From Carcharhinus longimanus (taxonomy: Eukaryota), in the NCBI GenBank assembly GCA_030264375.1, contig JASCQW010000099.1, positions 65,360,087-65,424,086 on the forward strand: a DNA stretch of 64,000 nucleotides. The letters are read 5' to 3'. This document shows, piece by piece, positions 30,733-64,000 of this stretch. Below the pieces are notes generated by a model. That model was not told the origin of the DNA and made no database searches. It saw nothing but the letters and a program-made list of their open reading frames with translations. The position numbers were made by a program, and so were the translations under genes. Each line of letters begins with the position of its first letter. Positions within the stretch are counted from its first letter, which is position 1.

Positions 30733-30885
30733 ATTGTTGTCAGTGCAGTCTAAATACATCAATTGATTAGATTTATTATTGTCATATGTATTATTATACA
30801 GTGAAAAGTATCGTTTCTTGCACACTACACAGACAAAGCGTACTGTTTATAGAGAAGGAAAGGAGAGAATGGAGAATGACGTGTT
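30733..30885 (+). repeat. 153-bp local duplicate of 32004-32156 (SINE/Rex1 junction)
   Basis: Near-identical sequence with about four substitutions. Confidence 0.9.
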
Positions 30886-31743: not shown

Positions 31744-32022
31744 GGCAACACAATGGCACAGTGGTTAGCACTGCTGCCTCACGACGCCAGGGACCCAGGT
31801 TTGATCCTGGACTTAGGTGACACTCTGTGTGGAGTTTGCACGTTCTCCCCATGTTTGCATAGGTTTCCTCCAAGTCCTCTGGTTTCCTCCCACAGTTCAA
31901 AAATGTGTGGGTAATGTTAATTGACCATGCTAAGTTGCCCCTTAATGTCAAGGAGTCAGCAGGATAAATACGTGGTGTAATAGGCATAGGGCCTGGGGTT
32001 GGAATTGTTGTCAGTGCAGTCT
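31744..32022 (+). mobile_element. HE1-type SINE truncated by a Rex1 insertion
   Basis: Head and core intact; stops at GTGCAGTCTCAAT where the LINE tail begins. Confidence 0.85.
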
Positions 32023-32032
32023 CAATACATCA

Positions 32033-33262
32033 ATTGATTAGATTTATTATTGTCATATGTATTATTATACAGTGAAAAGTATCACTTCTTGCACACTACA
32101 CAGACAAAGCATACCGTTTATAGAGAAGGAAAGGAGAGAATGGAGAATGACGTGTTACAGTTATGGCTAGGGTGTAGAGAAAGATCAACTTAATGCAAAG
32201 TTGGTCCATTCAAAAGTCTGATGGCAGCAGGGAAGAAGCTGTTTTTGAGTCAGTTGGTATGTGATCTCAGACTTTTGTATCTTTTTCCCAATGGAAGAAG
32301 ATGGAAGAGAGCATGTCCAGGACACTTGAGGTCCTTGATTACGTTAGCTGCTTTCCAAGGCAGCAGGAAGTATAGACAGTGTCAATGGATGGGAGGCTGT
32401 TTTGAGTGATTGACTGGGCTTCATTCACAATCTTCTGTAGTTTCTTGTAGTCTTGGACAGAGCAGGAGTCATACCAAGCTGTGATGCAACTGGAAAGAAT
32501 ACTTTCTAAGGTGCATCTGTAGACGTTGGTGAGAGTAGTAACAGACATGCCAAATTTCCTTAGTCTCCTGAGAAAGTAGAAGTTTGTTGGGCTTTCTTAA
32601 CAATAATGTCTACATGAAGAGACAGGACATGTTGTTAGTGATCTGGACACCACAAACTTGAAGCTTTCAAGCATTTCTGCTTCATCCCTATTGACGTAGA
32701 CAGGGGCATGCCCTCCACTATGCTTCCTGAAGTTGATGACCATCTCCTTCATTTTCTTGACATTGAGGGAGAGATTATTGTCATCAACCAGAGGGGAATT
32801 TGGCCATCCAGTCAAAGATGCCTAAAGAGTATAGTAAGGGGCTGAGGACCAATCTTGTGGAGTACCGGTGTTGAGGATGATCGTGGTGGAGTGTTGTTGC
32901 CTATCCTTACTGACTGCAGTCTGTGGGTTAGGATGTCTAGGATCCAACTGCAGAGGGAAGAGCTGAGCCTCAGGCCACGAAGTTTGGAGATGAGTCTCAT
33001 AGGAATAATGATGTTACAGTCTGAGCTGTAGTCTATGAATAGGAGTCTGACATAGGTGTCTTTATTATCTAGGTGTTCCAGGGATGAGTGCAGGGCCAGA
33101 GAGGTGACATCTGCTGTGGACCTGTTGCAGCGATAGGCAAACAGTAGTGGATCCAGGCAGTCTGACAGGCAGCAATTGATTTGTGCCATGACTCATATAA
33201 CCTCTCAAAGCACTTCACACTGATGGATGTCAGAGCCCTCGGTTGCTTGGCTTTTCTTTGGT
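32033..33262 (-). mobile_element. Rex1/Babar-type LINE, RT domain to 3' end
   Basis: [15 protein letters not shown]...[70 protein letters not shown]. Confidence 0.92.
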
Positions 33263-38895: not shown

Positions 38896-39012
38896 GTTTT
38901 TGCATCAATTCCTTGATATTCCAAAACCAGGTGTGCTGGAAACAGGATTTCATGCAGGATCTGTTATTAAGACTCATTGTTTAGATTTGAACATGAGCAA
39001 TGGTCTGTGGAG
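38896..39012 (+). CDS. Candidate 117-bp exon (phase 2-2): FLHQFLDIPKPGVLETGFHAGSVIKTHCLDLNMSNGLW; host gene uncertain
   Basis: Strong acceptor ttttcctttcctctccatag and donor GAG|gtaaga; only one open frame; its 3' 87 bp recur at 54117-54203 ending exactly at the donor. Confidence 0.55.
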
Positions 39013-41261: not shown

Positions 41262-44200
41262 GGGGCGGGGGATCTCACTGGGCAATTATTTATGCACATA
41301 TAAAGAGACATTTATTGACACTGGTGGTGGGCTGTAGAGTTAAGGAATTTTAATTTGTTGGCAAAATCTTTTGGTCCCACAAGCAGTGAAAAGGTTGGCA
41401 GATGGGGGAACTTAATTTGGCCAAAAATCAGTTTCCCGGGATGTTAAAGGTAGATTAAGCCAGGACAAAGTTCATGATGTACAATGTCAGGAAGCCCTTT
41501 TGCATGCATTAATATGTCATGCATGCTCATCAAAAGGCATGCATTGAGTCATGTATCCCTTGAAATTAAGTTCCCTACCAGCAAGAAATTAGAATGTTCA
41601 TTTTTTCAACTGCATATAAGAAGCGTGCACCTTGTCAGCTTCACTTCTTCCATGGCTTTGAGGTGAGTAGACGCTACTTCTGCCTTCTTGGGAGCTACTC
41701 ATACCTTGACATATATCAGCTGCTGGTAAGACAAGGGTGTAGTGGGCTAGACACAGGAGGCAGGCTAAGGGTGAAGGATGGGTATGGAGGCTGGATTTGA
41801 AGGGCAGGCAAGGGCTGCAAGGGAATAGAAAGCGTCAGGAAGGAAGACACTGCCCAGAGAAGAACAAGTGTGTTCAGGAAAGGATGAGGTAAATAACATC
41901 TGGGGGAAAGAAGAGACTGTTGGGGTAAGGGGGTGAGGCAGTGAGGGGAATGTGAAAGTGCAGCAACATGAGATGGAGGGAAAGGCCTTTCATGTTAAGT
42001 TTGAGAATCTTATGGCTGGGTGGAAGAAGGGGGTTTATAGCAATGATAGTTGGAGAGAGATGGTCCTATAGGATGGGCCTCAGTGCTGTCGATGGTGGGA
42101 TCCTGGGGTTGAACTGAGGGCACTGGGCAGAAGAGGGAATAGTCAGGGGGAGAACGGGATGTGGTAGGATGGAAAGTTCAAGGTAGAAGTACAGTGGATG
42201 AAAGTTTCATAGGGTGATTGAAGCGGACTATGCAGGTTGCTTGGATAATTGGGGGCACGGGGCAATTTCAGCTGAGCATGGGGACAGCCCTGGAACGAAG
42301 GAAAGCATATGAAGGTGGAGGTGAATGGTAATCGGGTTTGGGGTAATGGAGGAAGTTTAGGGGTGTCAGAAGGGAGCGGAATGGTGATATTGCGTGGGTC
42401 TAAGCTGATGGGAGGGAAGTTGGTGATTGACAGTGGGAGGGTAAAAGGTAGTAGAGTCAGTCTCAAAACTGACTTGCACCATTTTTCCAGTAGCAAAGCA
42501 ACACATTTTAAAACGGCAATGGCTAGAAGTGGAAGGAAGGTCTTTTCTGTGGCTGGTATTCAGGGGCAGTGTAATTGCCGACTGTAGGGACACCTAAATA
42601 AACAAGAGACAACTGCATGTCAACCATGCTCAGTTATATTCTCCACTCCATGGTGAAGCCCACTTGGCAGCAATACAAATGTCTCAACTTTGAGATCCCA
42701 ACAGGATGAACAGGAAGAACAGGATGTCCTCCAGGATGTCTTTCACCTGGAAGGACTGGAGTGGGAAAGTCATGTCCAAACAGAAGCCAGAGACAAGGCT
42801 AAGCAATGGCTTGGTGGCTTTAAGATGGAAGCAAACCTGTAAAAAATATATTCAGTAGATTAATTACTTCAATTCATTCACACATCCACTGAGGCAACAG
42901 GGTGAGGAGCTGCCATTCATTCTGTGCCATTTGTTATCTGCTACTGTCAGAGACAGGGCTAAAGGGAGGGAGGTGGATGCTTCAAGGAGCACAGCTTGTG
43001 GATGGCAGCCAACTCCCAGCACCAAATCTCCGTCCTCCCAGGTGAATGGTCATGTCTGACAAGGGCTCATGTGATTAGTCTTTCTATGCTGTCAAGATAA
43101 TGATCTTTCTATAGAGTCTGAAGAATAAGCTGAATAGTGTTGGAGGAAGGCTTCTTGCACATGGCTCTCAGCACCCTGGTCAAAAAGCAATGCTTCCTTG
43201 TGCAGTCATTTATGAACAGAAAGAACAGGATGTCCTCCGGGACGTCTTTCACCTGGAAGGAATGGAGTGGGGAAGTCATGTCCAAACAGAAGTCAGAGTC
43301 AAGGCTAAGCAATGGCTTGCTGGCTCTGAGATGAAGGCAAACATATAAAAAATATATTCTGTCAATTTATTTCTTCAATTCATTCACACATCCACTGAGG
43401 TATAGATGATGCAGAGTCCAAGAAACACTGCCTTTCTATTGGCTCTCGTCCAGATGAGGAGAAGGAGGCTGCAGGTTGGCACAGGGCCATGAGGAGCATG
43501 GCCTGAGCAGCAAGAAGCAGTGGGATGTCAAGAAGGTCAAGATGCTGGCAAACAGGGTTCACTGCATTGGAAAGCAATGGTTTGATCACAGCTATATCAC
43601 AGGCAGCACAGCTATCTACAAATGAGCAAAAGGTAATGTTGGAGGCGTCTTCAGATGTTTAGGAATGTGATGGCACAAAGCTTCTCCATGCCAGTTTCTC
43701 CACGATGACCTGCAGCCACAAAGAATTGGTGTAATCCCATGCTGGTGGCATTGAAGGTCACTGCCTAAATCTTCTCTACAAGTGCTCCTTCCAGGATTCC
43801 ATTGTGGCTCCATACTGCATCTCCCTGTGTCAGCATACTCAAGTGCATTTTGGTGGTGAGATGCCCTCTTCAGGAGATCGCACCAATTTGTTCAATTCTG
43901 CCTGGATCTCAGAAGCCAGGCTCCAAGACAGTTGGGATTTGCAGCAATCTCAGGTTTGCTACAAGTGCAGGGTGCGATTGATAATATGCATGTGGCCTGA
44001 GAGCTTTTGTTTGTGCTCAGTTCCCAGGGAGCTCTCATGGCACCTACATTCTGACCCAACCCCAGGTGCCACAGGGTTCTGAAGAACCTCAGCGATTGCA
44101 GGGCTGGTTCCTTGAGGACAAGAAATACCCCCAAAGGACCTGAATAATGGCACCAGTTCGCTGTCCACAGAGTGCTGCAGAGGAGAGGTACAATTCCACA

Positions 44201-47015: not shown

Positions 47016-47115
47016 TTATATCTGTAAAGGTAGATGATGTACATTGTAGACAAGAGTTTCAACAGGCTTAAAGGTTTTCCCTTGAAGTACAAATCCATTT
47101 GATGTTGAAGCAATT
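47016..47115 (-). CDS. MUC4/SUSD2-like gene, probable last coding exon: (E)IASTSNGFVLQGKTFKPVETLVYNVHHLPLQI*
   Basis: Acceptor ttttcctattgtgtttacag; phase 2 matches the TM exon; in-frame TAA. Confidence 0.65.
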
Positions 47116-47179
47116 CTGTAAACACAATAGGAAAACAATTTGTTATAACTGGATAAATTAACAGTAGCAGCATTAAATG

Positions 47180-47570
47180 TTATTCAATATCTTTGAGAGC
47201 TGCATGTTATTGAATATGTCATATTATTAAACATATTTATTTGAGAATTGCACATTATTAAATATATTGGGGAACTGAATTCAATCATTTAGACAATCGA
47301 ATGCTGTTAAACAAAAGCTTGTTATTGCTGGTTTATAATTCAGAATTGCTCATTGCTGAATATGTTTGAGAATTGTGTCTTACTGAATAACTTTGAAAAC
47401 TGGGCATTGTTGCACGTGTTTGAGAAATATAAATTATTGTAACTTAAGTTTGAGAATTATGTCTTACTGTGTGTGAATTGTACGTTCTTGAATGTTGCAT
47501 ATTCCAATTGGATGGTTTTGACAGTATTTCAGAATTCTACAATATTGAAGAACTGTGTCATATTGAATGT
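47180..47570 (+). repeat. Degenerate ~28-bp AT-rich tandem repeat (TTTGAGAATTG...TTATTGAATATG)
   Basis: Repeated TTGAGAATT / TTGAATAT units. Confidence 0.6.
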
Positions 47571-47784
47571 ATTTAGATTTGCATACTTTGAAGGCATCTC
47601 TAACGCCATTGACTACTTCATCCTCCTCCAATGTCCTTCCTTTGGTCCATCTCTGAGATACTAATCGATTTGGTTCCATGCTTACCTGACCTAACACAGG
47701 CACTAGGTTGTTGATAATGATTTCTCCTCCTCTCCTTTACAATTATCTGCACACTGCCCTTTGGAAACATTTTAGAGAAACATA

Positions 47785-48590
47785 GGGGGGAATATTACCA
47801 ATAAATGGTAGAGTGTTGGTTCCAGTGAGAACCCAAGTTGTTTCACACCATTATGCAGCGGGGTAGGGCCTCAACATGCCAGCAAAACCTGGATGCACTG
47901 AGAATGGGGTGCCATCTTTAAAGGGCACCCCGATCATAACAGGAATAAACCTCTCCCAAAACCCACCACTGAGGTCTCAGGGGCTCTCCTCCCCAGAGTC
48001 AGCACTTCCTCCCTTCCCTGATCATTGACCCCTTCTCCTGACCATCAGCCCCTTACCCCCTCACCCCTCTCACAATGCCCCCCCACCCCCGATCTCCCAC
48101 TCTATTGCTAGCATCCCCTGCTCCTCCATCTATTCTCAGTCCACAACCAAATCTGAATTAATTCCCACCCCTCCCCATATAAGACTCCCATAGGGGTCAG
48201 TTCCTTGGTATAAATGGGCACAGGCAGGTTGGAATTGTCAGGTTGGCATGGGCATGATGCCAAACTGGCAGTGCCAACTTGTGCCAAGAGACAGTGCCAA
48301 GAGGCCAGGCCACTACCTGCCCATGAACCTCTCCCTTGGGGGCTGAACGCGCCTTTATGCCCCTGAGGAGACCCTCACAATATGTTTACATCTTGTTGTA
48401 AATGGCATCAGTGTGACGTCATGCGGATGCCCATGAATATCCGGCGGGGGGGCAGAGGGGGGTTGTCCCAGAGACAATAGCTTATTATTGACATGCTAAC
48501 GTATTAAAATGAGCTTCTTGGATGCCCGCGGCATTTTGCAAGCTACTCCAACTGGAACGTGGAAACCAACTGACATGAATTGCGCTGAGT
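47785..48590. mobile_element. GC-rich non-autonomous DNA element
   Basis: GGGGTGCCATCTTTAAAGGGCACCCC palindrome and GGCAGTGCC motifs shared with 44628-45790. Confidence 0.45.
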
Positions 48591-49649
48591 CTCTCTATTT
48601 TCAGGTTTGCTATTTTGCAATTATGCTTAAAGGCATACATTCCCACTTGCTGCTGTTTAATAATTAATAATCACCTTCAACCTGCGGTCATTTCAGCAAC
48701 TGAAGTTTTGTTTAAATAGATTCAATATTTCCTCCTTTTTTGAAAATACTAACGCACTGGGATAAATGCTAACATATTATCCAGCTGCCCAATTCTATGT
48801 GTGAGTGAAGACAGTGAATGCATGTTATTAGAACCTAAAAACAAGCATCAGAGGTAAATTTGAGCCCAGAATTTCCTGCAACTGCACAATCTGTGTTTAA
48901 ATTACACAGTTTTGTGCTGTAAACAAATACCATGGTTTCCTGGAGAAGTAATTTGATCATACTGCAGCAAGCAAACCAAGGGTCTCAAAAGTGGTGCAGC
49001 CTATGGCTAATCATACTATATTGACGACTTAACTGGGCACAACCTGAATTATTGAATTCTTTTCGCTAAGAATTAAACATGTTAAGAAAGAACAAACATT
49101 TTACTTTACTCAGTCAATTAGTGTAATTCATGAGTTCAAACATTCACGTTTTTCAATCTCAGTGGTTACAGCAAGAAAACTTACACAAATTCAGCAAATG
49201 TGTTGCTGCATTGATATAATGCTGTTGGGAGGGAGAAGTGTAGTAGCACAGCTAGGATTATTTTGCACAAATTTTGATGACAATGCTGCCTGAGCAGCAA
49301 AACAATCCCATGAAATTATGGCATGGTGTAAATAATGACACAACTTACTTATGCTGTAATTTTATCTATCATTTGTGACAAAAAACTAATGCATTATTCC
49401 ACTGGTGCAAGTATCTAGAAAATTCTGGGTCTTTTTTTTGATCTTATCCTCACCCTGACATTCACACATGCACAGTTTCCAACTGAGGTCACTGTACTAT
49501 ATTCACCAATGTGTTTTTTGCCTTCCTCTAGTCCAATGGCACAGAAGTAGATGTTGGTATTTACGCTACTGGTGAAAAGTTACCACAGTTAACTCAAAAC
49601 AGACCAGAGATCAGAGCTAGAATCTCTTGAGTCTGTGTGTTTCATATTT

Positions 49650-49788
49650 GTGATGTGGATATGCCGGCGTTGGACTGAGGCCAGAACTCTCCATTCACCT
49701 GACGAAGGGGCTAACCCGAAAGCTAGTGAATTTACTATCAAATAAATCGGTTGAACTGAAACCTGGTGTTGTCAGACTTTTTACTGTG
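49650..49788 (+). mobile_element. Short Penelope-like pLTR insertion with 14-bp TSD
   Basis: TGATGTGGATATGCCGGCGTTGGACTG...AATAAA...ACCTGGTGTTGTCAGACT; TGTGTTTCATATTT at 49636-49649 and 49785-49798. Confidence 0.8.
49693..49731 (+). ncRNA. Minimal type I hammerhead ribozyme (Penelope-associated)
   Basis: ATTCAC-CTGACGA-A-GGG(gctaa)CCC-GAA-AGCT-A-GTGAAT: helix I 6 bp, CUGANGA core, helix II, GAAA, palindromic helix III. Confidence 0.75.
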
Positions 49789-50559
49789 TTTCATATTTAG
49801 CAGCAAATGTATTTGCCCGGTATGAGAGACTACTGATTAGACAATTATTTTGAACACATCAGGCTGGCACTTGCTGTTGATCTCTAAGAATGCTACCAAC
49901 AAAGGTCTCAATCCTCCCTGGCAAGTGGATTTTCCTTTTCTCAACGTCAGTTTGAATCTGGCGCCAAGTCAAGGGGATCTCCTCATGTCCAGCAGCATTG
50001 ATGTTATCAAGCACAGTAAGCATTTTCAGACAGCAAACCGGGAAGTAACAATCACTTTTAATTTTAAATTTTACGTATAACAAAATAAATAATGGGGCCC
50101 ACAATGGAATTCATGTAGAAATGTTAATTTTGATTTACTATTTTAAAAGTCTGTAGTATCAAAATGAAGAATTTGGCACTCAATAAATACAAAATTACTC
50201 ATTCAAGGCAAGTGAGGCTATGTAACAGTAATTATGAACTTATTATCCACTTAAAAACCCTATCACACCGCATTTAACAAGATATAATTTTATCAAAGAT
50301 CTTTACAATGTGACTAAAAGCATAAGAGTGGAAGTTCTCATCAGTTCATTGATTTAGAATTGATTCCATTCTGGGAGAACCTCAAAGGTTCACCCTTAGG
50401 GGAAGTGTAAAATAACTGACTGCAATGTCTCGATTTCTGCTTTTGCTTGTGAAAGTGTGGACTACAGAAATTGCTGTCAGTTGCAGAGGAGTAACAATGG
50501 AAAATATCGACAGTTTCAGTATCATTACAACTGTTGTGTTTAAAGCTGAGCATACTTAC

Positions 50560-50683
50560 TCTGCTTTCACTTTCCTTCTAATGCAATAGTAGAAAATTGG
50601 TAATGCAAGCAGAAGTAACAGTAATGGGATTCCTATTCCCAACACCAGGCCTATCAGCAGTCTGTCTTGGTTGCCAGCATTGT
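50560..50683 (-). CDS. MUC4/SUSD2-like gene, transmembrane exon: NAGNQDRLLIGLVLGIGIPLLLLLLALPIFYYCIRRKVKA
   Basis: cag acceptor and gtaagt donor; hydrophobic helix followed by RRK stop-transfer; phase 1-2. Confidence 0.88.
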
Positions 50684-51242
50684 CTGATTTAGAGTTAACA
50701 TAAATGAACAGTGGTGAGAATTATACAGAAATATCTTACTAACTGATATTTTTACTAAGTATTGGAAGTAAGTTTTGCTTCAGTGCTAAAAGTTCTTATA
50801 TTCATAGTTAAAATTAAAAAAAGCTAACATCATAATCCATACATAACTTATTTCCTTCCAGTTCTCATTTAACTTGACTTATGTGCTTTCTATATATTAA
50901 ATTCTCTTGTAGAACTTTCTAACATAATGGTTATGTTATTAAAATTATAATCCAGAGAACAGGAGCTCGTAGTTCCAACTTGGCAGCATAAAAAATCTGA
51001 ATATAAGAAACTGGTACTAGTATATGTGATCATAAAGTTGTTGGATTATTGGAAAAACCCATAGACACCTGAATAAGCTTTAGGCAAGAGAGCCAGTCAG
51101 CTTTGCCCACAGGTCACTCCAGTCCTGAAACAACATGTTTGACATTTAACTGCCCTTTCACCCAGTTGTATCACAAACTGCAGCACTTTCTTCAGGAGAA
51201 CCAGGGTTTTACTCCTTAGAACAATCCAAAAACGTTAGTATA

Positions 51243-51408
51243 AAGATTTGTGCTATATCTAGGTGGATTGGCCCTGTTAAATTGCCCCCGAGAATTGGGG
51301 ATCAGCAGGGTAAATATGTGAGGTTACGGGGATAGAACGTGGCTGGGGATTATTGTCTGTGCTCAACAGGCTGAATGCCCTCTTTCTACACTGTATGGAT
51401 TCTATGAT
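51243..51408 (+). mobile_element. HE1-type SINE 3' half
   Basis: AGGTGGATTGGCCCTGTTAAATTGCCCC...GATTCTATGAT. Confidence 0.7.
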
Positions 51409-53033
51409 CCCATAATTTTATATCTCCCAATGATTAGAAAGCAAATCTGCATATTATTAGGATGATATTTCAGCATTTAGACAGTTGCAATAGAAACATT
51501 TAAAGGAGGATAATGAATGAACAATGACATTATGAGCTTTGTTGATGACAACAAACTGCATGTAGATGATCTTTGTAAAGATGAGTAATCATATTCAAAT
51601 GGGGAAGATGAGCTAAGGAACACAGGTGAATTTAATATGAATACATGAACTTGTGTTTTTCGACAAAAATGGACAGACAAGCTGTAGAACTTCACCTGGC
51701 ACCACACCAAGGTGCTGCACATAATACTGAACAGACATTTTAAGTTACTTGTGCTTGCTGAGAACACCCTTTCCAAACTTACTTAAATTAACTCTGCGCA
51801 TGGGCAACATTGTAACTTTGGTCCCTGGGATTAAGGCTGCAATGGAAATGCTTTGAGATAGGTCAAAGTTTTATTGAATTTGGGATGGGATCGGTTTACA
51901 GTTTGTTACTACCCTATTTTGTCAGCAATGATGTTCAGGCCTTTTATCTTTAAACAAAGGAAAAGAACACAAAAAAATGATAAATTTTAGCTAGAAGCAA
52001 GATCCTGGACGTTAGCCTACTAAGATGGGCAAGAGAGGGTCAAAATCTAAGATACATATAATATGAACCCAAACAGCTATGCAAACAGTGGCTGCCTTTG
52101 CTTTTATAGTGTCAGGTATCAGGGCATCTGAGTGTCTTGCACTTGACAAGTGGGATGTTAATTAATACATTTGTATCAGACAGTCACTGTGCACTTAGGA
52201 ATCTGATATCAAATTTACCGTGCCATACAGGTTTCACAGGCATCTGGAAACTCGACCAAGAAGGAGAGGCAGGAGCAATCAGTTCCTAAAGATAACTGCC
52301 TCTTTCAGAACTACTGTGGACAAGGAGATTCAGGAGTGCTTCCCCAAGTTCCCACAAAAAGGATCTTCAGCTGCCCAGCCCTGATTGTAAACCCCCCTCA
52401 GCAATAACTGCCAATCATTCACCTGCTTTCCCACTGTGCGCCTCTTCCCACTTTTGATTTCAAGAGTCTTCCTCCTGATTATCAGGGACTATCCCCAAAG
52501 GTGTCTTTGTCACTTTTGTTGGCCCTCGTCCATCCACCAGATTGTCCATTTGGGCAGCAGGAGGATGTGAGACAATTCTATAAAATGGTCCTGCTATTGC
52601 CCGAGGCCCTGTTGCATCCTTCAGCCATTTTCAGCCTCACTCACACCTTGCTTCTCCATAAAAATCAGGACTGAAGTGTTTGTAATCTGTGAGGTAAGGT
52701 GCAGCTGTAACAGTTTCTAATGGGTCAGAAGGACCATAAAAGAACGCTGAGGAACTATGATGGAAAGATAAATGCACTAGTGTTACCTGTGAGCTGATAC
52801 TTGTTGCTCAGTCCACCCAAAGTGCACAGTAACTCATTTCTAACTAACAACCTCATTTTCAAGCTCCTTCTTGAACACATGGACTGCAGTGGTTCAGGAA
52901 AGCTGGCCCATCACCACTTTAGTCAGGGCAATTAGGGATGGTCAACAAATGTTGACCTTACCAGTGACACCCACATCCTGTGAATAAGTGAGAAAAAAAG
53001 TATTGCTTGTTCTTGAGTAAATTAAGTTCCTAC

Positions 53034-53156
53034 TGGAGCATGATTGTGATTCCATTTCATCTCTTCCATTACAAATGCACTTGAAGCCACCATAAGTGTT
53101 CTCACACAGGGCAGTTCCCTGACAGTTTGCTTCTGCACTGATACATTCATTTAAGT
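53034..53156 (-). CDS. MUC4/SUSD2-like gene, calcium-binding EGF exon: (D)LNECISAEANCQGTALCENTYGGFKCICNGRDEMESQSCS
   Basis: ttttccag acceptor, gtagga donor, phase 1-1, DxNEC and CxNTxGxFxCxC consensus. Confidence 0.9.
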
Positions 53157-53526
53157 CTGGAAAACATAAGAAATTTTATTGTCATGCCTAGCCATGTTAA
53201 TTAAATCAGCTGTTCTGCTGAATGTTAACCATCCGTTAGCAGTATTTAAAAAGGATTTGAGAATTATCCTAGATTTCTGTCTAACAACTAACACAACCTA
53301 AAGAAAAGATAAATTGGTTAAAAAAAGCACATTTCTTTGTGGGATTTAGTTGTGCAGAAAACAATTGCTGCATTTCTCCACAAAGAGAGTGTAACAGTAC
53401 TAAAGTAGTTCATGGTAATTAAAAAATGTAAAGAAGATACTTCAGGGAGATGTGATAGAGTATTTTCCTTTTGTTTAACAACTCCCTATCCTCCTTTGAT
53501 GAAAGTTATTTCAGGATTTCTTTGGA

Positions 53527-53645
53527 ATACAGAAAATGCTGGAAAATCTCAGCAGGTCTGACAGCTTCTGTGGAGAGAGAATAAAGCTAATGTTTCAAGT
53601 CTGACAAAGTGTCATTCAGACTTGAAACGTTAATGCTATTCTATT
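53527..53645. mobile_element. Penelope-like terminal fragment with degenerate hammerhead (CTGACAAAG...GAAACGTT)
   Basis: ACAGAAAATGCTGGAAAATCTCAGCAGGTCTG...; TCAAGTCTGA/TCAGACTTGA inverted repeat. Confidence 0.6.
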
Positions 53646-53943
53646 ATAACTTGACCATGGTTTGGCTTAACTTGATTCACTAATTAAATCTGGAAAAGTC
53701 CCATTATGATAATAATAATAGGTTGTAGAAAGCAGTCAAGCATCAATAACAGTATAATGGTAATACTAGGGTTATGACAACAAACAAACCTTTAAACTGT
53801 CTCAGATGCAGGCAGGCAATTTGTTTTAATTTTTAAAGGACTGGCTATTCAAATGACTTGACAGTTGACAGTCTTAAAGACCTTATCCGCCATTTATGAC
53901 TTTTTTAAAGATTCAGAATTCCCAAACTGTGGGATGAGACCTT

Positions 53944-54016
53944 ATAAGAACATAAGAACATAAGAAATAGGAGCAGGAGTAGGCCAACTAGCCCTTCGAG
54001 CCTGCCCCGCCATTCA
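53944..54016 (-). mobile_element. Young CR1/HER1 3' end adjoining a gap
   Basis: (CATAAGAA)n tail plus GGAGCAGGAGTAGGCC. Confidence 0.85.
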
Positions 54017-54116
54017 NNNNNNNNNNNNNNNNNNNNNNNNNNNNNNNNNNNNNNNNNNNNNNNNNNNNNNNNNNNNNNNNNNNNNNNNNNNNNNNNNNNN
54101 NNNNNNNNNNNNNNNN

Positions 54117-54203
54117 ACCAGGTGTGCTGGAAACAGGATTTCATGCAGGATCTGTTATTAAGACTCATTGTTTAGATTTGAACATGAGCAATGATCTGTG
54201 GAG
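54117..54203 (+). repeat. 87-bp copy of 38926-39012 (one mismatch)
   Basis: ACCAGGTGTGCTGG...TCTGTGGAG identical except AATGGTC versus AATGATC. Confidence 0.95.
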
Positions 54204-54458
54204 TTGGAAGACTGCCACCCCGGAACTTCAGATAATCCCCATTTGGATACAAAAATTCATCTGCTATTGTACTGCTCCACAAGCCAAGAAGACCAAGCGT
54301 CCTGTTGTAGAAAACATGTGGCAAATAGACTGTTGCCTGGAGGAAGCCATCTATGCCTAACTCCACTGTAACTTGTAGTCCAGAAAAATATACTGCAGAG
54401 CATCTGGTCCTCTTTTCACATACGAGCGCCAACTGATTCTGACTGAAATGATACACCT
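54202..54458 (-). CDS. MUC4/SUSD2-like gene, VWD C-terminal exon, 3' end missing in this assembly
   Basis: ttctcttcacag acceptor; EVYHF...VYLPHVFYNRTLGLLGLWSSTIADEFLYPNG (cf. T.GLLG.WN.N..DDF..PNG); expected ..F.FG..W ending replaced by the 87-bp copy. Confidence 0.88.
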
Positions 54459-54769
54459 CTGTGAAGAGAAACAACAGAGAAATGGAAAGGTACAATTATT
54501 TACTGAAATTCCTTTGAATTGGTGTCAACATTAGTTATCAGAAGCTGATTAAAATGGCAAGTGACCAAATCTTAGAATCAATGTTATTTAAACAGAGAAG
54601 TAAATTGGAACACATTTCACAAAATACATATTGTTACAATGACTAAATATTAAGTGATTAACTCACAGCTATTAATGCAACAGGTTAATTTATTTGACAT
54701 ATACATTTCAGAAAACAATTCAGAATTGAGTTATTTGTATGCATGTGAGATTTACAGATCAACTTCACA

Positions 54770-56340
54770 GTAGAGTCAATGCTCTCATTCCCACTCCCTT
54801 TGTTTTGCATTCCATGACATCTTCGCCATTTAATCTTTCCTGCCCTCTAACTTATTTCTGGCCTTCTTTCTATTTTTCTTCATCTGCCCCTCCCTCCCTC
54901 TTTTCAACATAAAACCCATCACATTTCCACCCCTCGCCATTTCTGAAGATGAGGCATAATGGATTTAAAATGTTAACCCTGCTTCTCTCTCCACAGCTGT
55001 CGCCAAAATTGCTTTTCCTGCAATATTTGATCTTATTTCAGATCTCCAGCATCCGCAGTGTTTTGTTTTAATTTTTGTGTTTAATTCATTGCCACTTCAC
55101 TTCCAGAAATGCCTACCTTGAAGAAATTCTGCTCCTCGCTTCAATGGGATTTCTGTTTCTCTCTTGTTCACCTTCATTGCATTCCCTCTCCTCCTGGTGT
55201 TTTGTGGCATTTATCAAAACTCACTTTCACATCCACATTTCCTTCCTCAGTGACTGTTGTCTGCCCTGACTTACCCCACATAGCTTCCAACTGAATTTAC
55301 ATCCTTTATATTTCAAATTCATATAGAGTTACATATATCTCCAAGACATGCCACATCTCTCAGACTAGCCACATTCTGAGATCCACAGAGTGCTATGTGC
55401 CACTCCATGTACACACTCAACCCAGCACTGACTCATCTTATCTCAAAATTCTCTTTCTCCTCAGTTCCATTTCACTCTTCGAATTAGCCGGTACCTTAAC
55501 ACGAAACGTTTTCTCTTCTTTTCAGGTGTTAAGGATTTATCTGAATGCACGAAGCATTCGGAATAAAGTGGATGAGCTGGTGGCGCAGATCAGCACAAAC
55601 GGATATGATCTGGTGGCCATTACAGAGACNNNNNNNNNNNNNNNNNNNNNNNNNNNNNNNNNNNNNNNNNNNNNNNNNNNNNNNNNNNNNNNNNNNNNNN
55701 NNNNNNNNNNNNNNNNNNNNNNNNNNNNNATTGAATGGCGGGGCAGGCTCGAAGGGCTAGATGGCCTACTCCTGCTTCTATTTCTTATGTTCTTATGTTC
55801 TTAAAAGCCCAATACCTTACTGGTACTGACACCCCTCTGGTTCATTCCTCCCCTTCCCTTCCCTCTGACCCCATTCCTTCATCTAATCCCAGCCCTTGCC
55901 ATGTATCCAGTCTACCCTCTGACTTTCTCCTCTCTGATGCTGAATGATCTGAGCTCAGCAAAGGACTCAGTTTTATCCCTTCGCATCATCACTTCAATGA
56001 ATTTTGAGCCTGCCAGGATATTGAACTCTCCTACCATTGCCTTCTCTGTCATGCTCACTTCTTTGGGCAGGAGTCCTTCTTGCCACCCATCCCCTGCACC
56101 TTCTAACCCCACCACCATCACCACATCCCTCCATGCAACAGACCTTTTCAACTGCCTCCAATATTCTCCCTCTGGTGGACATCTCCCACAGAACCCTTTT
56201 ACTTGCTCTTGATCTTTTCACTGAGATGATTTCAATGATTGTATTGGTGCTGTTGCACGCTCATATCTAGAACTGCTTCCAATTCCTACCCTTCTCTCAC
56301 CTTCACATGGTCCATCTCCAACATTTCTCTTCCCTTCTTG
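54770..56340 (+). mobile_element. Penelope-like element (pLTR and ORF fragments) interrupted by a CR1
   Basis: pLTR-type TTCTGAAGATGAGG...GTTAAC...TTTCAGATCTCCAGCATCCGCAG; ORF motif LSDAE.S.LSKGLSFIP. Confidence 0.65.
55525..55803 (+). mobile_element. Young CR1/HER1 LINE collapsed into a gap (endonuclease start and 3' tail)
   Basis: YLNARSIRNKVDELVAQISTNGYDLVAITE before the gap; (TTCTTATG)n tail after it. Confidence 0.88.
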
Positions 56341-56583
56341 TGTATTGTTTCCCAAATTGATTTGTTAGGAAGTATGCAGTATTGTATTTATATTAATATG
56401 ATAGTACAGATTTGTTAAGATATGATGTTCACAATAACTAAATTCAAATAGAGATAAACATTTAATCCAAGTTTGACGATTTGCACCATAATGATAGATT
56501 TAATTTATTTGTTATGGCTCTCTGATCTCTTGCTCTACATGTGCATCGTATTAGCCAATGAACTACACAGAGGAGATCTCATG

Positions 56584-57534
56584 TGTTAGGAACCAGATCA
56601 GAAACTCCAAAGTATATTATAAAGTTAGCCTATATCCTAACTTTTTCTTTTGGTTTTGACATTAGGGTGAGCATAAGATATTTTGCTCCAGGTATGGTTC
56701 AATGGACCCACTGGGGAGTTTTCATCAAAACAATTTTATTTAAGAATATTTAAGAATAGTTCGAACATAACAAAAAGAATTAGCATAACTTTTACCAATT
56801 AAAATATTTAAACATGACAAAGTATAATTCTTAACAACTAGCAATCTCTATTGTTCCAATTTAAACCAATATTCCCATAGACATACATCCTTCTTCAGAA
56901 TTAGTTAGCACAAAAGAAAACACATGTGGTGCTTGGTTTCCAGCCTCTTAATACCCCTGGATAGAGATCCAAACAGATTCTCACACAGCTACCCTCAGAG
57001 AAAGATCTACTCCAAAACAGCAAAATCTCAGNNNNNNNNNNNNNNNNNNNNNNNNNNNNNNNNNNNNNNNNNNNNNNNNNNNNNNNNNNNNNNNNNNNNN
57101 NNNNNNNNNNNNNNNNNNNNNNNNNNNNNNNCCAAAACAGCAAAATCTCAGAGAAAAAGACTTATTTCCTGGTAGATTCCAGTCTCCACTTCAGAGAGAG
57201 AAAGGGAGATAGCAAAAGCAAACACTATCCCAACAGCAACTGACTTGATTCTTCTGTATAAGCCTAGCTCCACCCGGTCATATCGCCTTAGCTATCAATC
57301 AACCTAATCAAGCTCCATTCTGAAATAGCTCAAGGGATAACAATAAAATAATCACCCTGCATTAGTCCAGATTAAAACAAACATTGCAACTATCAAAATC
57401 AATTATGCTGCTGCAATAACAATAGAGTGCTGCTGGATCCAGACAAAATGGCCTTGAGTGCATAGAACTGCTACAACAGATGCTGCGCAAGGGATGTGAC
57501 ACAAATACAATTCTTAAAGATACACATTATCACA
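56584..57534 (-). mobile_element. Solo LTR (Gypsy-type) with 4-bp TSD CATG
   Basis: TGTTAG...ATCACA termini; CATG at 56580-56583 and 57535-57538. Confidence 0.75.
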
Positions 57535-57671
57535 CATGTGATTCAATCAATAATCTCATTTACACTGGAAATTTGTTTCTAATTGGTTGCCAGCTACAAT
57601 TGACTTTCCAGCACTGCTGAGCATTTGCTGTCATTTGTGACAATTCCACTGACCTTTTCACAAACTCTTAC

Positions 57672-57759
57672 CTAAATCTTCACCTTTGTGTAAGCTGATA
57701 TCCTTATCATTTACTGTAACAGAAAGTTCCTTTTCAGACTTGGAGCATTCCCATTGTAC
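57672..57759 (-). CDS. MUC4/SUSD2-like gene, VWD exon: VQWECSKSEKELSVTVNDKDISLHKGEDL
   Basis: tttctcatttcaattag acceptor, gtaaga donor; phase 0-1 links the neighbouring exons. Confidence 0.85.
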
Positions 57760-57875
57760 CTAATTGAAATGAGAAAAGATTTAGTTTAAGATAGGAGATA
57801 ACAGAAATGTTAGTTACTGTTTCAAAACAGAATTTTTAAACTATCTGGTCATGATTTTGAGAATAAACTACTTAC

Positions 57876-58096
57876 TTTCATCATTACCATCCCTTGATAA
57901 AATGCAGCCAGCTTTACCAAGGCCACTGTATTTATAAAGGTGTTGTTTTTAATTGTTAGGTAACTTTGCCCTTGAAGAGTAAATATATTGTGTCCTTTGG
58001 CTGATGATAACCTGACAATGACGTACTCTCCGAGTCCATGAAATATGTAGTCAACTCCATCAAATGTTTTCACATGTAGGGTTCCATAAACCTGAC
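57876..58096 (-). CDS. MUC4/SUSD2-like gene, first VWD exon: GQVYGTLHVKTFDGVDYIFHGLGEYVIVRL...FTLQGQ...AAFYQGMVMMK
   Basis: aag acceptor (phase 1), gtaagt donor (phase 0); TFDG..Y.F.GLGEY signature of MUC4/SUSD2 VWD. Confidence 0.92.
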
Positions 58097-58884
58097 CTTA
58101 ACAATAAATAGTTTTTGAGAATTTATCCATATACAGTATTTATTTTAACTCCTCTTTCTCTCTAAAAACAAATGTTGTTGAGTCTAAATCTATTTAGTCT
58201 GAGTCCATGTTTGTGCTGTTGCCATTTTTCAATTACACTGTAAATTTAACAGGATGTATTTACATTGTTGGAGTTATTTTTCTTCTCCATCTTAAGTTCC
58301 TCATTCACTTCTAATTATACCTCTTTCTTAACACTCTTGAGTTAGCTACTAGTCAAGATCATCCAGGATGACATAACCTCTAATTCTCCATCCTTTTCTG
58401 TGGGGAAATATCTATCTTTGGAAATAAATCGGAACCGCCATACAACACTGTGATTCTGAAAATATGCAAGAACATTTATAACTGCAGCTGCCTCAATGGA
58501 TTAGAGGATAAATGAACTGTTCAGTGTGGAAAAGGGCACCATAGTCTAGTTAGGTCTATGTTGATCTGCAGTCTATGTTTGGTTAGCTCAAATCACCTGG
58601 GTGGCATTTGAGTGCTGCATTTGGAATCAGTGCCCATGGAAATGGAATAAAATCAGGCAAGCGTTCTTGCTCTTAACTCCAATGAAGTGAAACCTGCTTA
58701 AATGTGCACGGCATTGATGGAACAAGAATGTGTTGCAATGGATTTCCCATTAGTTAGATTATTTTTATTCATTCATGGAATATGAACATCTCTGGTTAGG
58801 CCAGCATTTATTTTCCATCCTTAATTGCCTCTGAGAAGTTGGTGGTGAGCTCTCGAACTGCTGCAGTCTACGCAAATGTACAAA

Positions 58885-59690
58885 CATATGAAAAAAAAAG
58901 CAGGAGTAGGCTTTTCAGCCTCTCAAACCTGCTCCTCCATTCAATGAGGCCAAGGCTGATCTGATAGTAACCTCAAACTTGCACCTGTCTATCCCTGATA
59001 ACCCTCTTCTTTGCTGAGAATCTATCCACTTCTGCCTTAAAAATATTCAAAGACTTTGCTTCCCCCTCCTTTTCAGGAAAAGAGTTCCGAAGACTCATGA
59101 CTCTCCAAGTGAAAGCATTTTGCCCTATCTCCGTTTTAAATGGATGATCCTCTATTTTTAAACAATTATCCCTACATCTAGAGCCTTCCACAGGAGCAAA
59201 TATCCTCTTCACGTCCATCCTGTCAAGATCTGTCAGGACCTTACATGTTTCAATCAAGTCACCTCTTACTTTTCTAAACTCCAGCAAATACAAGTGTGGT
59301 TTGTCCAACCTTTTGTCATAGGACAAGCCATCCATTAGAGATATTAGCCTGGTAAACCTTCTCTGAACTGCACTCAACATCCTTCCTTAAATAAAGTGAT
59401 CAATATGATTCACAATGCTTCAAATGTAGTCTTGTACAACCAAAGCATAACCTTCCTGTTTTTGTATTCAATTCCCCCTGCAATAAGTGATAACATTCTA
59501 TTCGCTCTCCCAATTACCTGCATATTGGTCTTTTGCGATTCATGCACTATGACACCCAGATTCCTTTGTACCTAAGAGCTCTATAATCTCTCAAAATTCA
59601 GGGAATAATTTTATTTTTTATTCTTTCTGCCAGAATTCATATTTTCCTACATTATATTCCATTTGCCAGGTCTTTGTCCAGGTTGTGTAG
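58885..59690 (-). mobile_element. CR1 LINE RT C-terminus and 3' UTR
   Basis: LSAVQRRFTRLI...LSYDKRL...LEFRKVRGDLIETCKVL...LNIFKAEVDRF. Confidence 0.9.
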
Positions 59691-59709
59691 ATATAATCTG
59701 GGGTTTACC

Positions 59710-60950
59710 ATCACACAATGCTGTTTGGGAGGGAGTTCCAGGATTTTGGCCCGGTGACAGTTAAGGAATGGTGATATATTTCTATGTCAGGATGGTGATT
59801 GGCTTGGAAGGGAACTTCCAGGTGGTGTTGTTCCTATGTGTCTACTATCCTTGTTCTACTAGTTGATAGCAGCTGTGGGCTTGGAAAGTGCTTTCTATGG
59901 AGCCTTGGTGAGTCCCTGCAATATATCTTGTAGATTGTACACACTATTGCCATTGCATATTAGTGGTGAAAGGAATGAATGGTTGTGGATGGGTACCAAT
60001 CAGGCAGGTTGCTTTGTCCTGGATGGGTTCAAGCTTCTTGAGTGTTGTTGGAGCTGCACTCATCCAAGCAAATGGAGCGTATTGCGACCCACTCTTGACT
60101 AATACTTTGTAGATGATGAACAGGCTTCGGCGAATCAGGAGGTGAGTCACTCACCACAGAATTTCCAGTTGCTGACCGCATCTTGTAGCCACAGTATTTA
60201 TATGATTAGTCCAGTTTGGTTTTTGATTGATAGTAACCCCCAGATTGTTGGAAGTGAAGGTAACGTCACTGAATGTCAAGAGGTGATGGTTAAGTTCTCT
60301 CTTGTTGGAGATGGTCATTGCCTAGCACATATGTGGTGCGAATGTAATTGCCACTCGTCAGCCCAAGGCTAAATATTGTCCATGTCTTGCTGCATTTGAA
60401 CATAGACTGCTTCAGTATCTGAGGACTTGCGAATGGTGCTGAACATTGTGTAATTTCCCCACTTCTGACCTATTTTGTCATTGTTTGAACCAAGATCTCA
60501 AGCTCCCAACCTGAATGGCCTGGTAGAACACAAACTATGTCATTAAATAGGTTATTGCTATACAAGTGTAACTTGATAGCACTGTTATAGATGGCTTTCA
60601 TCACCTTACTGATGATCGAGAGTATACTGATGAGGTGGTAATTCAATTGCCTTGCTTTTTGTGTACAGGACATACTGGGCAGTTTTCCACATTGCTGGGT
60701 AGATGACAATGTTGTCACTGTACTAGAACAGCTTAGCTAGGATGCAACGAATTCTGGAGCACAATTCTTCAGTACTATTGCCAGAATATTATCAGGGCCC
60801 ATAGACTTTGAAGTACCCAGTGCTTTCAACCATTTCTTGATATCACATGAAGTGAATCATATTGATTGAAGACTGCCACTTATGATGCTGGGAACCTCTG
60901 GAAGAGGCCGAGATGGGTCACCCACTTGACACATTCAGCTGAAAATAGTT
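59710..60950 (-). mobile_element. Second CR1-group LINE (RT and 3' region)
   Basis: ISILSIISKVMKAI, IYKVLVKSGSQYAPFAWMSAAPTTLKKL; 3' end continues at ~58760-58870. Confidence 0.8.
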
Positions 60951-61506
60951 TACCAACACTCTTTAGTCATGAAGAATGGTCATGAAAATGCAATGCACTG
61001 ATCCAATTCTCCAAGAGAAGTGAAAAGGGGAGATTGTTGAAGAAAAAGTATCTTATCAATTAGAAAGCACAAACACTAACCTAAACAGCCTACTCATTTG
61101 ATTTCTGATACTCAAAGGCTGTGAGTGTGTATCCTACAGTTACTTATAACTTCAAATCGATTACCAAGGTTGGTTGGGTGTGTTTAAGCTATTCATGAGG
61201 CTGAACACAACATAATTACTAGTTCACCTTCAATAAGGCAAAACTGTTACGTTGCAGTTTTCCTGACTTCAGTCACACATCTTTGGGTAAATTATGGAAA
61301 ATTGGTCTATATAGTCAGAGATATCTATGACTTTGTTCTCCTATCTGGAGCTCAATGAGTGATTGATTGTAAAAGGGAACAACTGAAAAAGAGAAAATAA
61401 CTTCTGAAAAGCACTGAATTAAATGAATACAACTAAAGCCAATGCAATTCTCAACATAGTAAGCCATAATAGTCACAATGCACAAAATAAATTGTCATTT
61501 GCTTAC

Positions 61507-61617
61507 CTAAACCCAATGAAGTATAATTCTCACACATATCAATAGGTCGTTTTTCATAATACAAATTGCATAATGAAGATCTTCTGCAACACCATTCAAA
61601 AGGTTCCAAGTCCCCCT
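61507..61617 (-). CDS. MUC4/SUSD2-like gene, AMOP C-terminal exon: KGDLEPFEWCCRRSSLCNLYYEKRPIDMCENYTSLGL
   Basis: aacag acceptor, gtaagc donor, phase 1-1; DL.P..WCC....C.LY..RP...C..Y AMOP signature. Confidence 0.93.
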   Translation of the reverse strand, partial: RGTWNLLNGVAEDLHYAICIMKNDLLICVRIILHWV

Positions 61618-63120
61618 CTGTTAATATATAATAAAACAATTATGACTAAAATTCAATGCAAGCTGTTTATTATTTGCAAATATTGCCTACATAAGATTGC
61701 ATGAGTTCAGCACATCAGGCGTTTCTCACAATCAAAATCCACAATTTTGAATAACAATATATGTGTACAAGTTTCCAAATTGGGGTCTGTAATGTCAGTA
61801 CACCTCTGTCTACCTGGAGACAAAAATGAGATACTCAGTCCCAGTTCTGAAATATTTATTGATAATAGGTGGTGGCATCTATTACATATAAGTATTGAAA
61901 TTTTTATTCTGTATGTTAGCTGGAAGCATTTGTTTCCAAATAGCTCAATGTCCATTTAGTAGATTTCTTATTGACTCCCATATTAGCATGGCCATGTATG
62001 AAATGTTACCATCTAACAATTTCACAGCTTGTTGTCTGGTTGCTAGCTATCAGCACTGTTGATGGTAGCAATGATAACGTAAATAATTATAATGTGTTCC
62101 ACATATATCCCGAATGTTAGTCCACAGACAGGTGCTTTAAGTGGGAACTTTATGTATTAGTAGAACTAGAGCAGACTACTTCCAAGAATTACACAGGGAC
62201 GTTTTTCTCATTCAGAGTAAAAATATCCCAAGCTAATTTCAAGAACATTCAGGTAGATTTTAAAGCTCTTAAAGTTTTCTGCAGTGAAGCAAACTTTAAT
62301 GTAGATATCAGGTTGGCAATTTAATAATTCAGTGAACTGATCTAAGCTAATAGTTAGTGTGAATACAGCAAGATTATACTGAGCCTAAATCAACCTGATC
62401 TAAGCTGAGATCTTGTGATAAGGCGTAGTAAAACATTTTGGATGTTAAACTGAACATGACTTGTCTAAAGTCTAATCTCTGAATAGTTGCATATTTATTT
62501 GAGTAAAGGGACATTTAATTAACCAGTTTTGAATGAGCTGTGTAGAAATATTTAAAATGGAAATTAAAAAAGCATCTGGTTAAAATAAAAGTCAATTTTC
62601 CACATGCTTTTGGGCTTTATGCTCAGGAAGCATTCATTATTAAGATTTTCAATTCATTTTCAACAGTAACAGCACAAAGTAGGAATCAAACATGCCTTTC
62701 TCCACCTACCTGTCTAGTTTTGGTGATTTTACATCTATGAAAAGGTGACAACGCTGACTAATTTTGATAGCACAAAACGCCACCAAGGCTCAAAAGGGTA
62801 GAGGAGCTTTTGCAGTGAAAATCAAAACGTAATAGTTAATGAATGCCAAGGATTGAAAAAGATTGCAGGAGGATTAAAAGCCAGGGGATGGAAGGAATTC
62901 TGCAGTTTGCAGGACATGAGAAGCCAACAGTTAGAGCTAATCCCAAAACCTGTCATCAGTGTTAGCCACACATAAATTTCCAATCAGAAGTTACTTGCAA
63001 TCAGTTAGAAGTTGAAATCCTGCCTGATTCATTTTCTAGGCATTAAGGCTACTGATTTCCCAACAGCATCAACTGAATACTTAACCTTGGGCAACAGAAG
63101 TAATTTTAATCTATACTCAC

Positions 63121-63715
63121 TTATGTGATCTTGCATCATTGTTGCTTCTGGGGAGTAAATAAAGTAACGATCAGTTATGCCCGTAATCAGATACCCTGAG
63201 CTATAGATGCATCTTCGGCCAGCCTTGAACCTATTAGGCAATGCAGATTGAAATGTTATCCCTTCGCCTTCCAGCTTCTGTTTGGTTGAAGCATTGAATA
63301 GCATAATCTCTGGTATAAAACGGTTGTCTTCCTTTGCTTGTGACTCGTGACAGGGACAAGAATGTACGTTGGTATTCCAGGCAGAAGGATTTGGTTCAGT
63401 TAGATACCAAAGCCAGCACTTTTGCTGGTAGCTTTTATTGTATTTACTGGAGTTTTGCAGATCCAGCCGGTAAGCCCATTGCCCAAGGAGTCCTGTGTTT
63501 CCAATTGCTTGATCTGGCCTGTATCTTCCTCCTGGGCCATATGTGTTAACTTTTTGAGTTTGGGGATCATTGTAAAATATTCCTTTACCATTTGTGTAGC
63601 CAATCAATGCTCTGTGGAGTAATCTCTGACCGGGGTACCAGAGCATTTTAGCATATTTTAACAAAGCAAAGGAGAGAATTCCATCCGTAGTCAATATGCA
63701 CTGAAATGTGTTTGT
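63121..63715 (-). CDS. MUC4/SUSD2-like gene, 595-bp exon (NIDO C-terminus plus AMOP N-terminus)
   Basis: tttacag acceptor, gtgagt donor; TNTFQCILTTDG..SFAL..Y, RYRPD...GNTG..GQWAYRLD, KCWLWY..EP, SCPC..SQA.ED.RF. Confidence 0.95.
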
Positions 63716-64000
63716 CTGTAAATGAATATGTAGAGAAAAATTAAAAATATCTCTGAAAAAGTAAATAATGTCACATGAAAATAGCAATTACAAATCAACA
63801 AACCAAGCATTTTCAAATATTCAAGAGCATGTAGAGAATTAATTTAGCTTACAGAGACAATCAATTTGTTACACCTAAATGAGGCAAATCTAACAGTGGA
63901 ATTACTCAGGTATGGAATAAAAAATATAAAATATGTTGGAAAAATAAATCACATTGATCAATGTATGAAGAAGAAAAAAGTTTAAAACTTTGAATGTGAC

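Follow-up and report, generated by a model that had tools for sequence, protein, structure and literature searches.

The window analyzed here (the whole stretch of 64,000 nucleotides) contains, on its minus strand, part of a gene for a mucin-4-like membrane protein with NIDO, VWD, C8, and EGF domains. The VWD exon of this gene is 88% identical to a basking shark protein and 82-88% identical to the three cartilaginous-fish mucin-4-like proteins compared (P0001-P0003), with which the gene shares the domain order; the stingray homolog carries NIDO, VWD, C8, and EGF domains (Pfam). Unlike P0001-P0003, the gene is here split across one scaffold and four unplaced contigs, and ~12 of its codons are unassembled. 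The mucin exons, the gap that interrupts them, and the plus-strand features that cross them are the following.

47019..63718, minus strand: the part of the mucin-4-like NIDO-VWD-C8-EGF membrane protein gene that lies in the window (eight exon matches)
54202..54458, minus strand: VWD-domain exon of the mucin-like gene, of which the last ~12 codons and the donor are absent from the assembly
53941..54016, no strand: end of a short high-copy repeat, forming the left flank of the gap
54017..54116, no strand: gap of 100 N, of undefined size, representing at least 24.8 kb and ~400 mucin codons
Unplaced mucin contigs C18360, C1474, C68621, and C1437: reported sizes of 4373, 6736, 4343, and 9396 bases
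38896..39012, plus strand: antisense exon A, 117 nt, with an acceptor behind a tract of 14 pyrimidines in 15 positions and the donor GAG/GTAAGA
38926..39002, plus strand: 77-nt word that exactly matches the contig start at 54117, where genomic (G) and spliced (A) paths diverge
54117..54203, plus strand: borrowed 3' end of exon A, made up of the 77-nt vertex, the variant A at 54194, and 9 more bases
54204..54489, plus strand: antisense exon B of 286 nt, which overlaps the VWD exon of the mucin and has the donor AAG/GTACAA
G000:C99:65452112 (window-equivalent 92026), plus strand: antisense exon C, spliced to exon B in sequencing run X1
54118..54360, plus strand: open frame that runs through the junction, with 80 codons inside the window and 58 from its first ATG (54184)

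The mucin-like gene skips from approximately residue 402 to residue 806 of P0001 right at the 100-N gap. The absent residues (565-1009 of P0003) were found in the same assembly (G000) on the four unplaced contigs, where the mucin exons are unbroken and have AG/GT ends in all eight cases checked. Positions 53964-54016, immediately left of the gap, coincide exactly with the opening 53 nt of C18360, the unplaced contig that bears the next mucin exons. A LINE insertion was considered as the content of the gap and dropped, since C18360 runs on into unique sequence directly past the end of the repeat. The final ~12 codons of the VWD exon were found nowhere in G000 when one mismatch was allowed. Among the five matches to PF23263, four belong to other mucin-like genes. 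Upstream of the NIDO exons, the minus strand of G000:C99:65435790-65449802 holds a pair of frames, uninterrupted over 579 and 790 residues, that consist of tandem EGF-like repeats (window-equivalent 75470-77206 and 87407-89776, respectively); many EGF repeats per exon are unusual, and the same mucin-like gene may have its 5' part here.

The first base past the gap is also the first base of a copy of the exon A end. Comparison within the 64-kb window confirmed the original prediction that the last 87 bp of this exon reappear at 54117-54203 with one mismatch: 86 of 87 bases agree with 38926-39012, the sole difference being G at 39003 and A at 54194. As had also been claimed, identity is lost precisely at the exon A donor, after 39012, and the joined frame stays open up to a TAA, at 54358-54360. 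The 87-nt stretch occurs at only these two places in G000. The AG at 54202-54203, which forms the last two bases of the copy, is equally part of the mucin exon's own letters.

The original prediction further held that the mucin codons continue as PTEE and that their plus strand forms a ready-made acceptor, and this was borne out in a relative. In DNA of run X5, the mucin exon continues on the minus strand as PTEEEIYKFQQS, in agreement with protein P0002, and the plus strand accordingly reads 12 pyrimidines in 15 positions followed by CAG, the AG being equivalent to 54202-54203. The orthologous exon end, sought in relatives, is thus intact; its basis is runs X5 and X20 together with proteins P0001-P0003. 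The letters of the exon A donor are identical in X1 and X5. The proposal of a cDNA-like join over a ~15-kb intron stands as to splicing and fails as to size, the skipped plus-strand intron between A and B being at least ~39.8 kb.

A second junction joins exon B to exon C in run X1, where the path leaving the donor at 54489 enters a strong acceptor 37.5 kb farther on, with one base differing from the genomic form. The exon C letters as spliced are absent from the window and have no exact match in G000, and were matched with one mismatch in the downstream loci. Both plus-strand introns are canonical GT-AG, opposite to the minus-strand mucin-like gene. Because A-B and B-C both occur in X1, a spliced antisense molecule of at least three exons is present in that run, and the junction claimed for a natural antisense transcript is upheld by an exact donor-acceptor match at each step.

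We considered whether a duplication at the DNA level, or a chance join, could end on splice-like sites by accident. With 29 donor-like and 94 acceptor-like sites per 64,000 plus-strand positions, the joint expectation is ~7e-7 per junction, a crude count from simple site patterns that were picked after the sites had been seen. Two joins, each exactly donor to acceptor, are not attributable to chance. In favor of a duplication, the X1 contig shared by both paths has 58 letters before 54117 that are readable to 30 only, so that sharing of upstream intron is possible; overall, we regard this explanation as extremely improbable. These 58 letters equal 30 of exon A plus 28 expected from a GT-sharing junction, and by its size alone the shared contig suggests a fourth exon upstream of A.

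The open frame across the A-B junction ends 129 nt ahead of the B-C junction. The joined frame had no homolog among proteins of 44-140 aa, and no Pfam or Rfam family was matched by the frame or its region. The antisense RNA is thus likely non-coding as judged from its sequence, although a short peptide may be made from the joined frame. Natural antisense lncRNAs overlap coding exons and are multi-exonic with GT-AG introns. The transcript resembles them in being multi-exonic with canonical GT-AG sites, in having no protein family or homolog, and in having its stop codon over 50 nt ahead of a junction; it differs from known examples in that only the junctions of a single run, whose type is unrecorded, attest to it. 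None of the 23 listed runs covering 54117-55100 is recorded as RNA. Two runs from more distant relatives that we guess to be RNA, X20 and X21, contain mucin mRNA contigs spliced at 54460 only and no antisense junction; their tissue is not on record, so that this absence weighs neither way.

As extrapolated from its exons, the antisense RNA would traverse the entire mucin-like gene, its end falling close to an intermediate-filament gene. The first exon of the latter (L046:703-912, window-equivalent 94703) lies within a CpG island and faces the mucin-like gene head to head; it matches Pfam Filament (E 2e-5), and the gene presumably resembles IFFO. A further CpG island with repeated GCATGCG motifs (L102) lies 12.4-13.2 kb left of the window and is a candidate promoter or start of the plus-strand RNA, possibly acting in both directions.

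Six of the 23 listed runs were compared over the locus. Run X1 is identical to the window throughout 54117-54770 and probably is the source sample of the assembly, hence not independent evidence; its library type is not on record, and its contigs total 2,102 million letters, intronic sequence included. Five X1 contigs lie at the locus, with depths that are contig means at low depth: the shared part of exon A (14.9), the G path from exon A into the intron (10.6), the contig of the junction and exon B (54164-54489; 23.4), the intron after exon B (6.9), and the path departing at the donor at 54489, that is, the B-C junction (9.1). The two exon depths thus stand above those of the introns (6.9-10.6) and of the B-C junction. 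Contig sizes match a 31-mer graph to the base, the B-C contig having 80 letters (30 + 50) and ending 30 nt past a T/C difference.

The relatives present a different arrangement. In the DNA-type runs X2, X5, and X6 (~1% diverged), all three break with the window at 54202/54203 and lack an A-B join; exon A is on one contig and exon B on another, and the latter contig extends beyond 54202 (the complete letters of this extension are from X5). X20 contains a spliced mucin mRNA that runs through the VWD exon. The genomic continuation of the mucin exon was found neither in the X1 contigs nor in G000, for which a tip clipped at low depth is a plausible reason in X1. We infer that this animal carries the continuation, which is observed in relatives X5 and X20.

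The left end of the copy bears on how the junction entered the assembly. The copy starts 77 nt ahead of the mismatch (39003 - 38926 = 77), and 77 nt is the longest exact overlap of a contig end with another place; it occurs at 4 of the 147 contig ends counted in 334 kb plus the four unplaced contigs, the end at 54117 included. Word lengths of 55 and 77 are usual in multi-k assemblers. Since the copy begins exactly one such maximal overlap before the mismatch, its left end is a vertex of a 77-mer graph and not a breakpoint, and the adjacency of exons A and B in the assembly is most likely an artifact.

The same assembly commits the same type of error with a proven retrocopy of EF1A. At two gap edges (G000:C146:25993137 and 25996045; L086, L075), the intron-bearing EF1A gene on C146 carries letters of the retrocopy contig C15434 that are exactly 55 and 77 nt long. 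The 55-nt edge places 5' flank of the retrocopy within exon 3 and breaks that exon, and the 77-nt edge gives a false poly(A) end where the adjoining contig holds genomic sequence. Collectively, the unbroken missing exons on the unplaced contigs and the same borrowing at the EF1A gap edges make a real truncating insertion unlikely. The suggestion of an RNA-templated insertion that truncates the mucin is therefore rated unlikely; if the favored reading is correct, "truncated" is the wrong label for the mucin, whose gene is probably intact.

The other source originally suggested for the junction was RNA-assisted gap filling, in which RNA-guided scaffolding or gap closing would have pasted transcript letters at a gap edge after assembly. 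The copy does adjoin the 100-N gap, yet the junction is already in contigs built directly from X1, the size of the borrowed segment is set by the 77-mer vertex, and the exon A end at 54117 is the only exon copy of its kind in 334 kb holding 69 gaps. This explanation is already largely refuted and we rate it as very unlikely. The earlier reading did not include a route through a retrocopy and a chimeric contig, nor the ~400 codons concealed by the gap.

We consider it probable that the spliced form derives from a young, collapsed retrocopy elsewhere in the genome, from which the assembler crossed into the mucin locus. A B-C depth near single copy, two base differences between the spliced and genomic forms, and the fact that relatives lack the junction together fit a young retrocopy. 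A-to-I editing was dropped as the cause of the two differences, which on the RNA strand read G>A and T>C. The directly observed elements are the A-B and B-C junctions of X1 beside genomic paths, the start at a 77-mer, and the unbroken middle of the mucin gene; the following steps would connect them. A plus-strand non-coding RNA would be transcribed over the whole mucin-like gene, with the mucin's PTEEE codons serving as its polypyrimidine tract and acceptor. This RNA would have undergone reverse transcription and germ-line insertion once the lineage had separated from the compared relatives, turning exon B (288 shared bases) into a two-copy repeat in the assembly graph. At low depth, the genomic entry to exon B may have been clipped, or dropped as a piece shorter than 500 nt, such that the contig entering from the intron (54490 onward) passed through B onto the spliced A-B edge and halted at the vertex. 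The scaffolder would then have placed this contig beside the neighbor of C18360 with a 100-N gap between them. The shortest of 20 sampled contigs is 523 nt, which suggests that the assembly has a 500-nt contig floor.

This genome does make real retrocopies. Among 45 EF1A matches in G000, two intronless copies are decayed retrocopies that are 87-96% identical to their parents. One of them (G000:C162:120964317-120966962; L096) lies within its own parent gene between two 100-N gaps, is 87-94% identical to the exons of the surrounding gene, and has frameshifts and an A-rich tail. Its position is probably due to homology-guided scaffolding, although it may be a real insertion in cis; a captured cDNA was rejected for this copy, which is decayed and frameshifted.

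Several points speak against the retrocopy. Searches around exons A, B, and C and the first poly(A) signal yielded no additional near-identical copy, and neither an insertion site nor a flank contig, poly(A) tail, or target-site duplication came to light; one of these searches scored 40 of 8201 candidates, the first and last exons were not reached, and short contigs were likely dropped from G000. Exon B depth (23.4) exceeds the ~15 expected for two copies. Non-coding RNAs are also expected to give rise to retrocopies only rarely.

In an alternative, RNA-derived reads, from a mixed or cross-contaminated library, supplied the spliced form and the assembler took the same chimeric path, leaving the mucin intact with no retrocopy. 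In its favor, no retrocopy flank was found in G000, the depth of exon B exceeds that of both junctions, a pattern expected from several isoforms, and a DNA origin of the X1 reads is not on record. However, a non-coding RNA present at genomic depth would imply far deeper EF1A and GAPDH and hence identical intronless contigs for both, and none were found among the 45 EF1A and 4 GAPDH matches (7 GAPDH candidates scored). The EF1A gene on C146 was moreover assembled gap-free over five introns, and the B-C junction depth of 9.1 is close to the single-copy depth of 6.9-10.6. We therefore judge an origin in RNA reads to be unlikely. One GAPDH contig (L137; G000:C50706) has its third exon interrupted after TQKTV by unrelated sequence and is another chimera or an insertion.

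A further alternative is a real change in place, in which repair templated by the antisense RNA or its cDNA either joined A to B, cutting the mucin exon, or deleted the antisense introns on one allele and with them most of the mucin gene. The genomic exon end is missing from both X1 and G000, no retrocopy flank was found, the 1:2:1 depth pattern suits a deletion on one allele equally to a retrocopy, and whole-intron deletion guided by spliced RNA is reported in human cells (PMC12065846). Against this, a one-sided repair leaves the B-C junction unexplained unless there is a second cDNA copy, the left end of the copy is a graph vertex, the mucin exons show no decay, and introns of ~40 and 37.5 kb would need precise removal. 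G000 retains both introns, and the mucin exons there are unbroken; an intron loss, if any, could be restricted to one allele. Nothing points to halved depth: gaps per kb amount to 0.19 between exons A and C versus 0.24 outside (placed sequence without unplaced contigs), and two long unrelated X1 contigs have depths of 8.0 and 9.2, like the introns, a weak comparison given that such contigs are shallower than the locus in X2. A change in place thus appears unlikely. Its strongest form, in which antisense RNA templated a heritable one-allele loss of the ~40-kb intron(s) or a cut of the VWD exon and thereby knocked out the mucin-4-like gene, is improbable; if true, it would be a new and natural route to gene loss through antisense intron loss.

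Repair of breaks templated by RNA (PMC12065846) is similar in that exons become precisely joined in the genomic sequence of the parent locus itself; it differs in that here the intervening sequence is retained at ordinary depth, the introns are tens of kb long, and heritability is required. The favored retrocopy reading resembles young retrocopies and retroCNVs (PMC4314676; 10.1101/2023.10.31.564742): exon-exon junctions occur in a run dominated by DNA, the spliced form is almost identical to its parent, exon depth is raised, and close relatives lack the junction. Unlike in retroCNVs, the parent would be an unannotated antisense non-coding RNA, and no insertion site, poly(A), or target-site duplication was found. 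A mapped insertion site is the gold standard for retrocopy calls, and calls from junctions alone reproduce worse than calls with a mapped site (PMC4314676). Retrocopy screens begin from protein-coding mRNA and bypass non-coding parents (PMC13320880); our literature search, whose narrow terms make a negative outcome weak evidence, yielded no publication dealing with this locus or with non-coding RNAs as retrocopy parents. The mis-join beside a gap through a shared segment, which recurs at EF1A, resembles chimeric contig ends from collapsed duplicates (10.1101/2023.10.31.564742). It is unlike other contig chimeras in that the shared segment is an exon of an antisense RNA and mimics a splice within a gene on the opposite strand.

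The locus would thus combine known kinds of elements, namely an antisense non-coding RNA, a probable young retrocopy, and a chimeric contig end. The RNA would be an unannotated multi-exon antisense transcript spanning more than 78 kb that borrows an acceptor from the mucin's own codons. A very recent copying of this RNA into the germ line is likely and would mean that non-coding RNA is actively retroposed in a shark. For draft genomes in general, a simple check follows: where a copied exon abuts a gap and begins exactly one word length ahead of its first mismatch, its start is a graph vertex.

Within 54266-54743, differences from the relatives are skewed, the window having A where the relatives have G at six of nine listed places (X2). 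The difference at 54266 changes a Thr that is conserved in P0001-P0003 to Ile in the mucin. Away from gaps, the window also contains two local direct duplications, 30733-30885 / 32004-32156 (153 nt, 97% identical) and 42706-42894 / 43212-43400 (189 nt, 90% identical).
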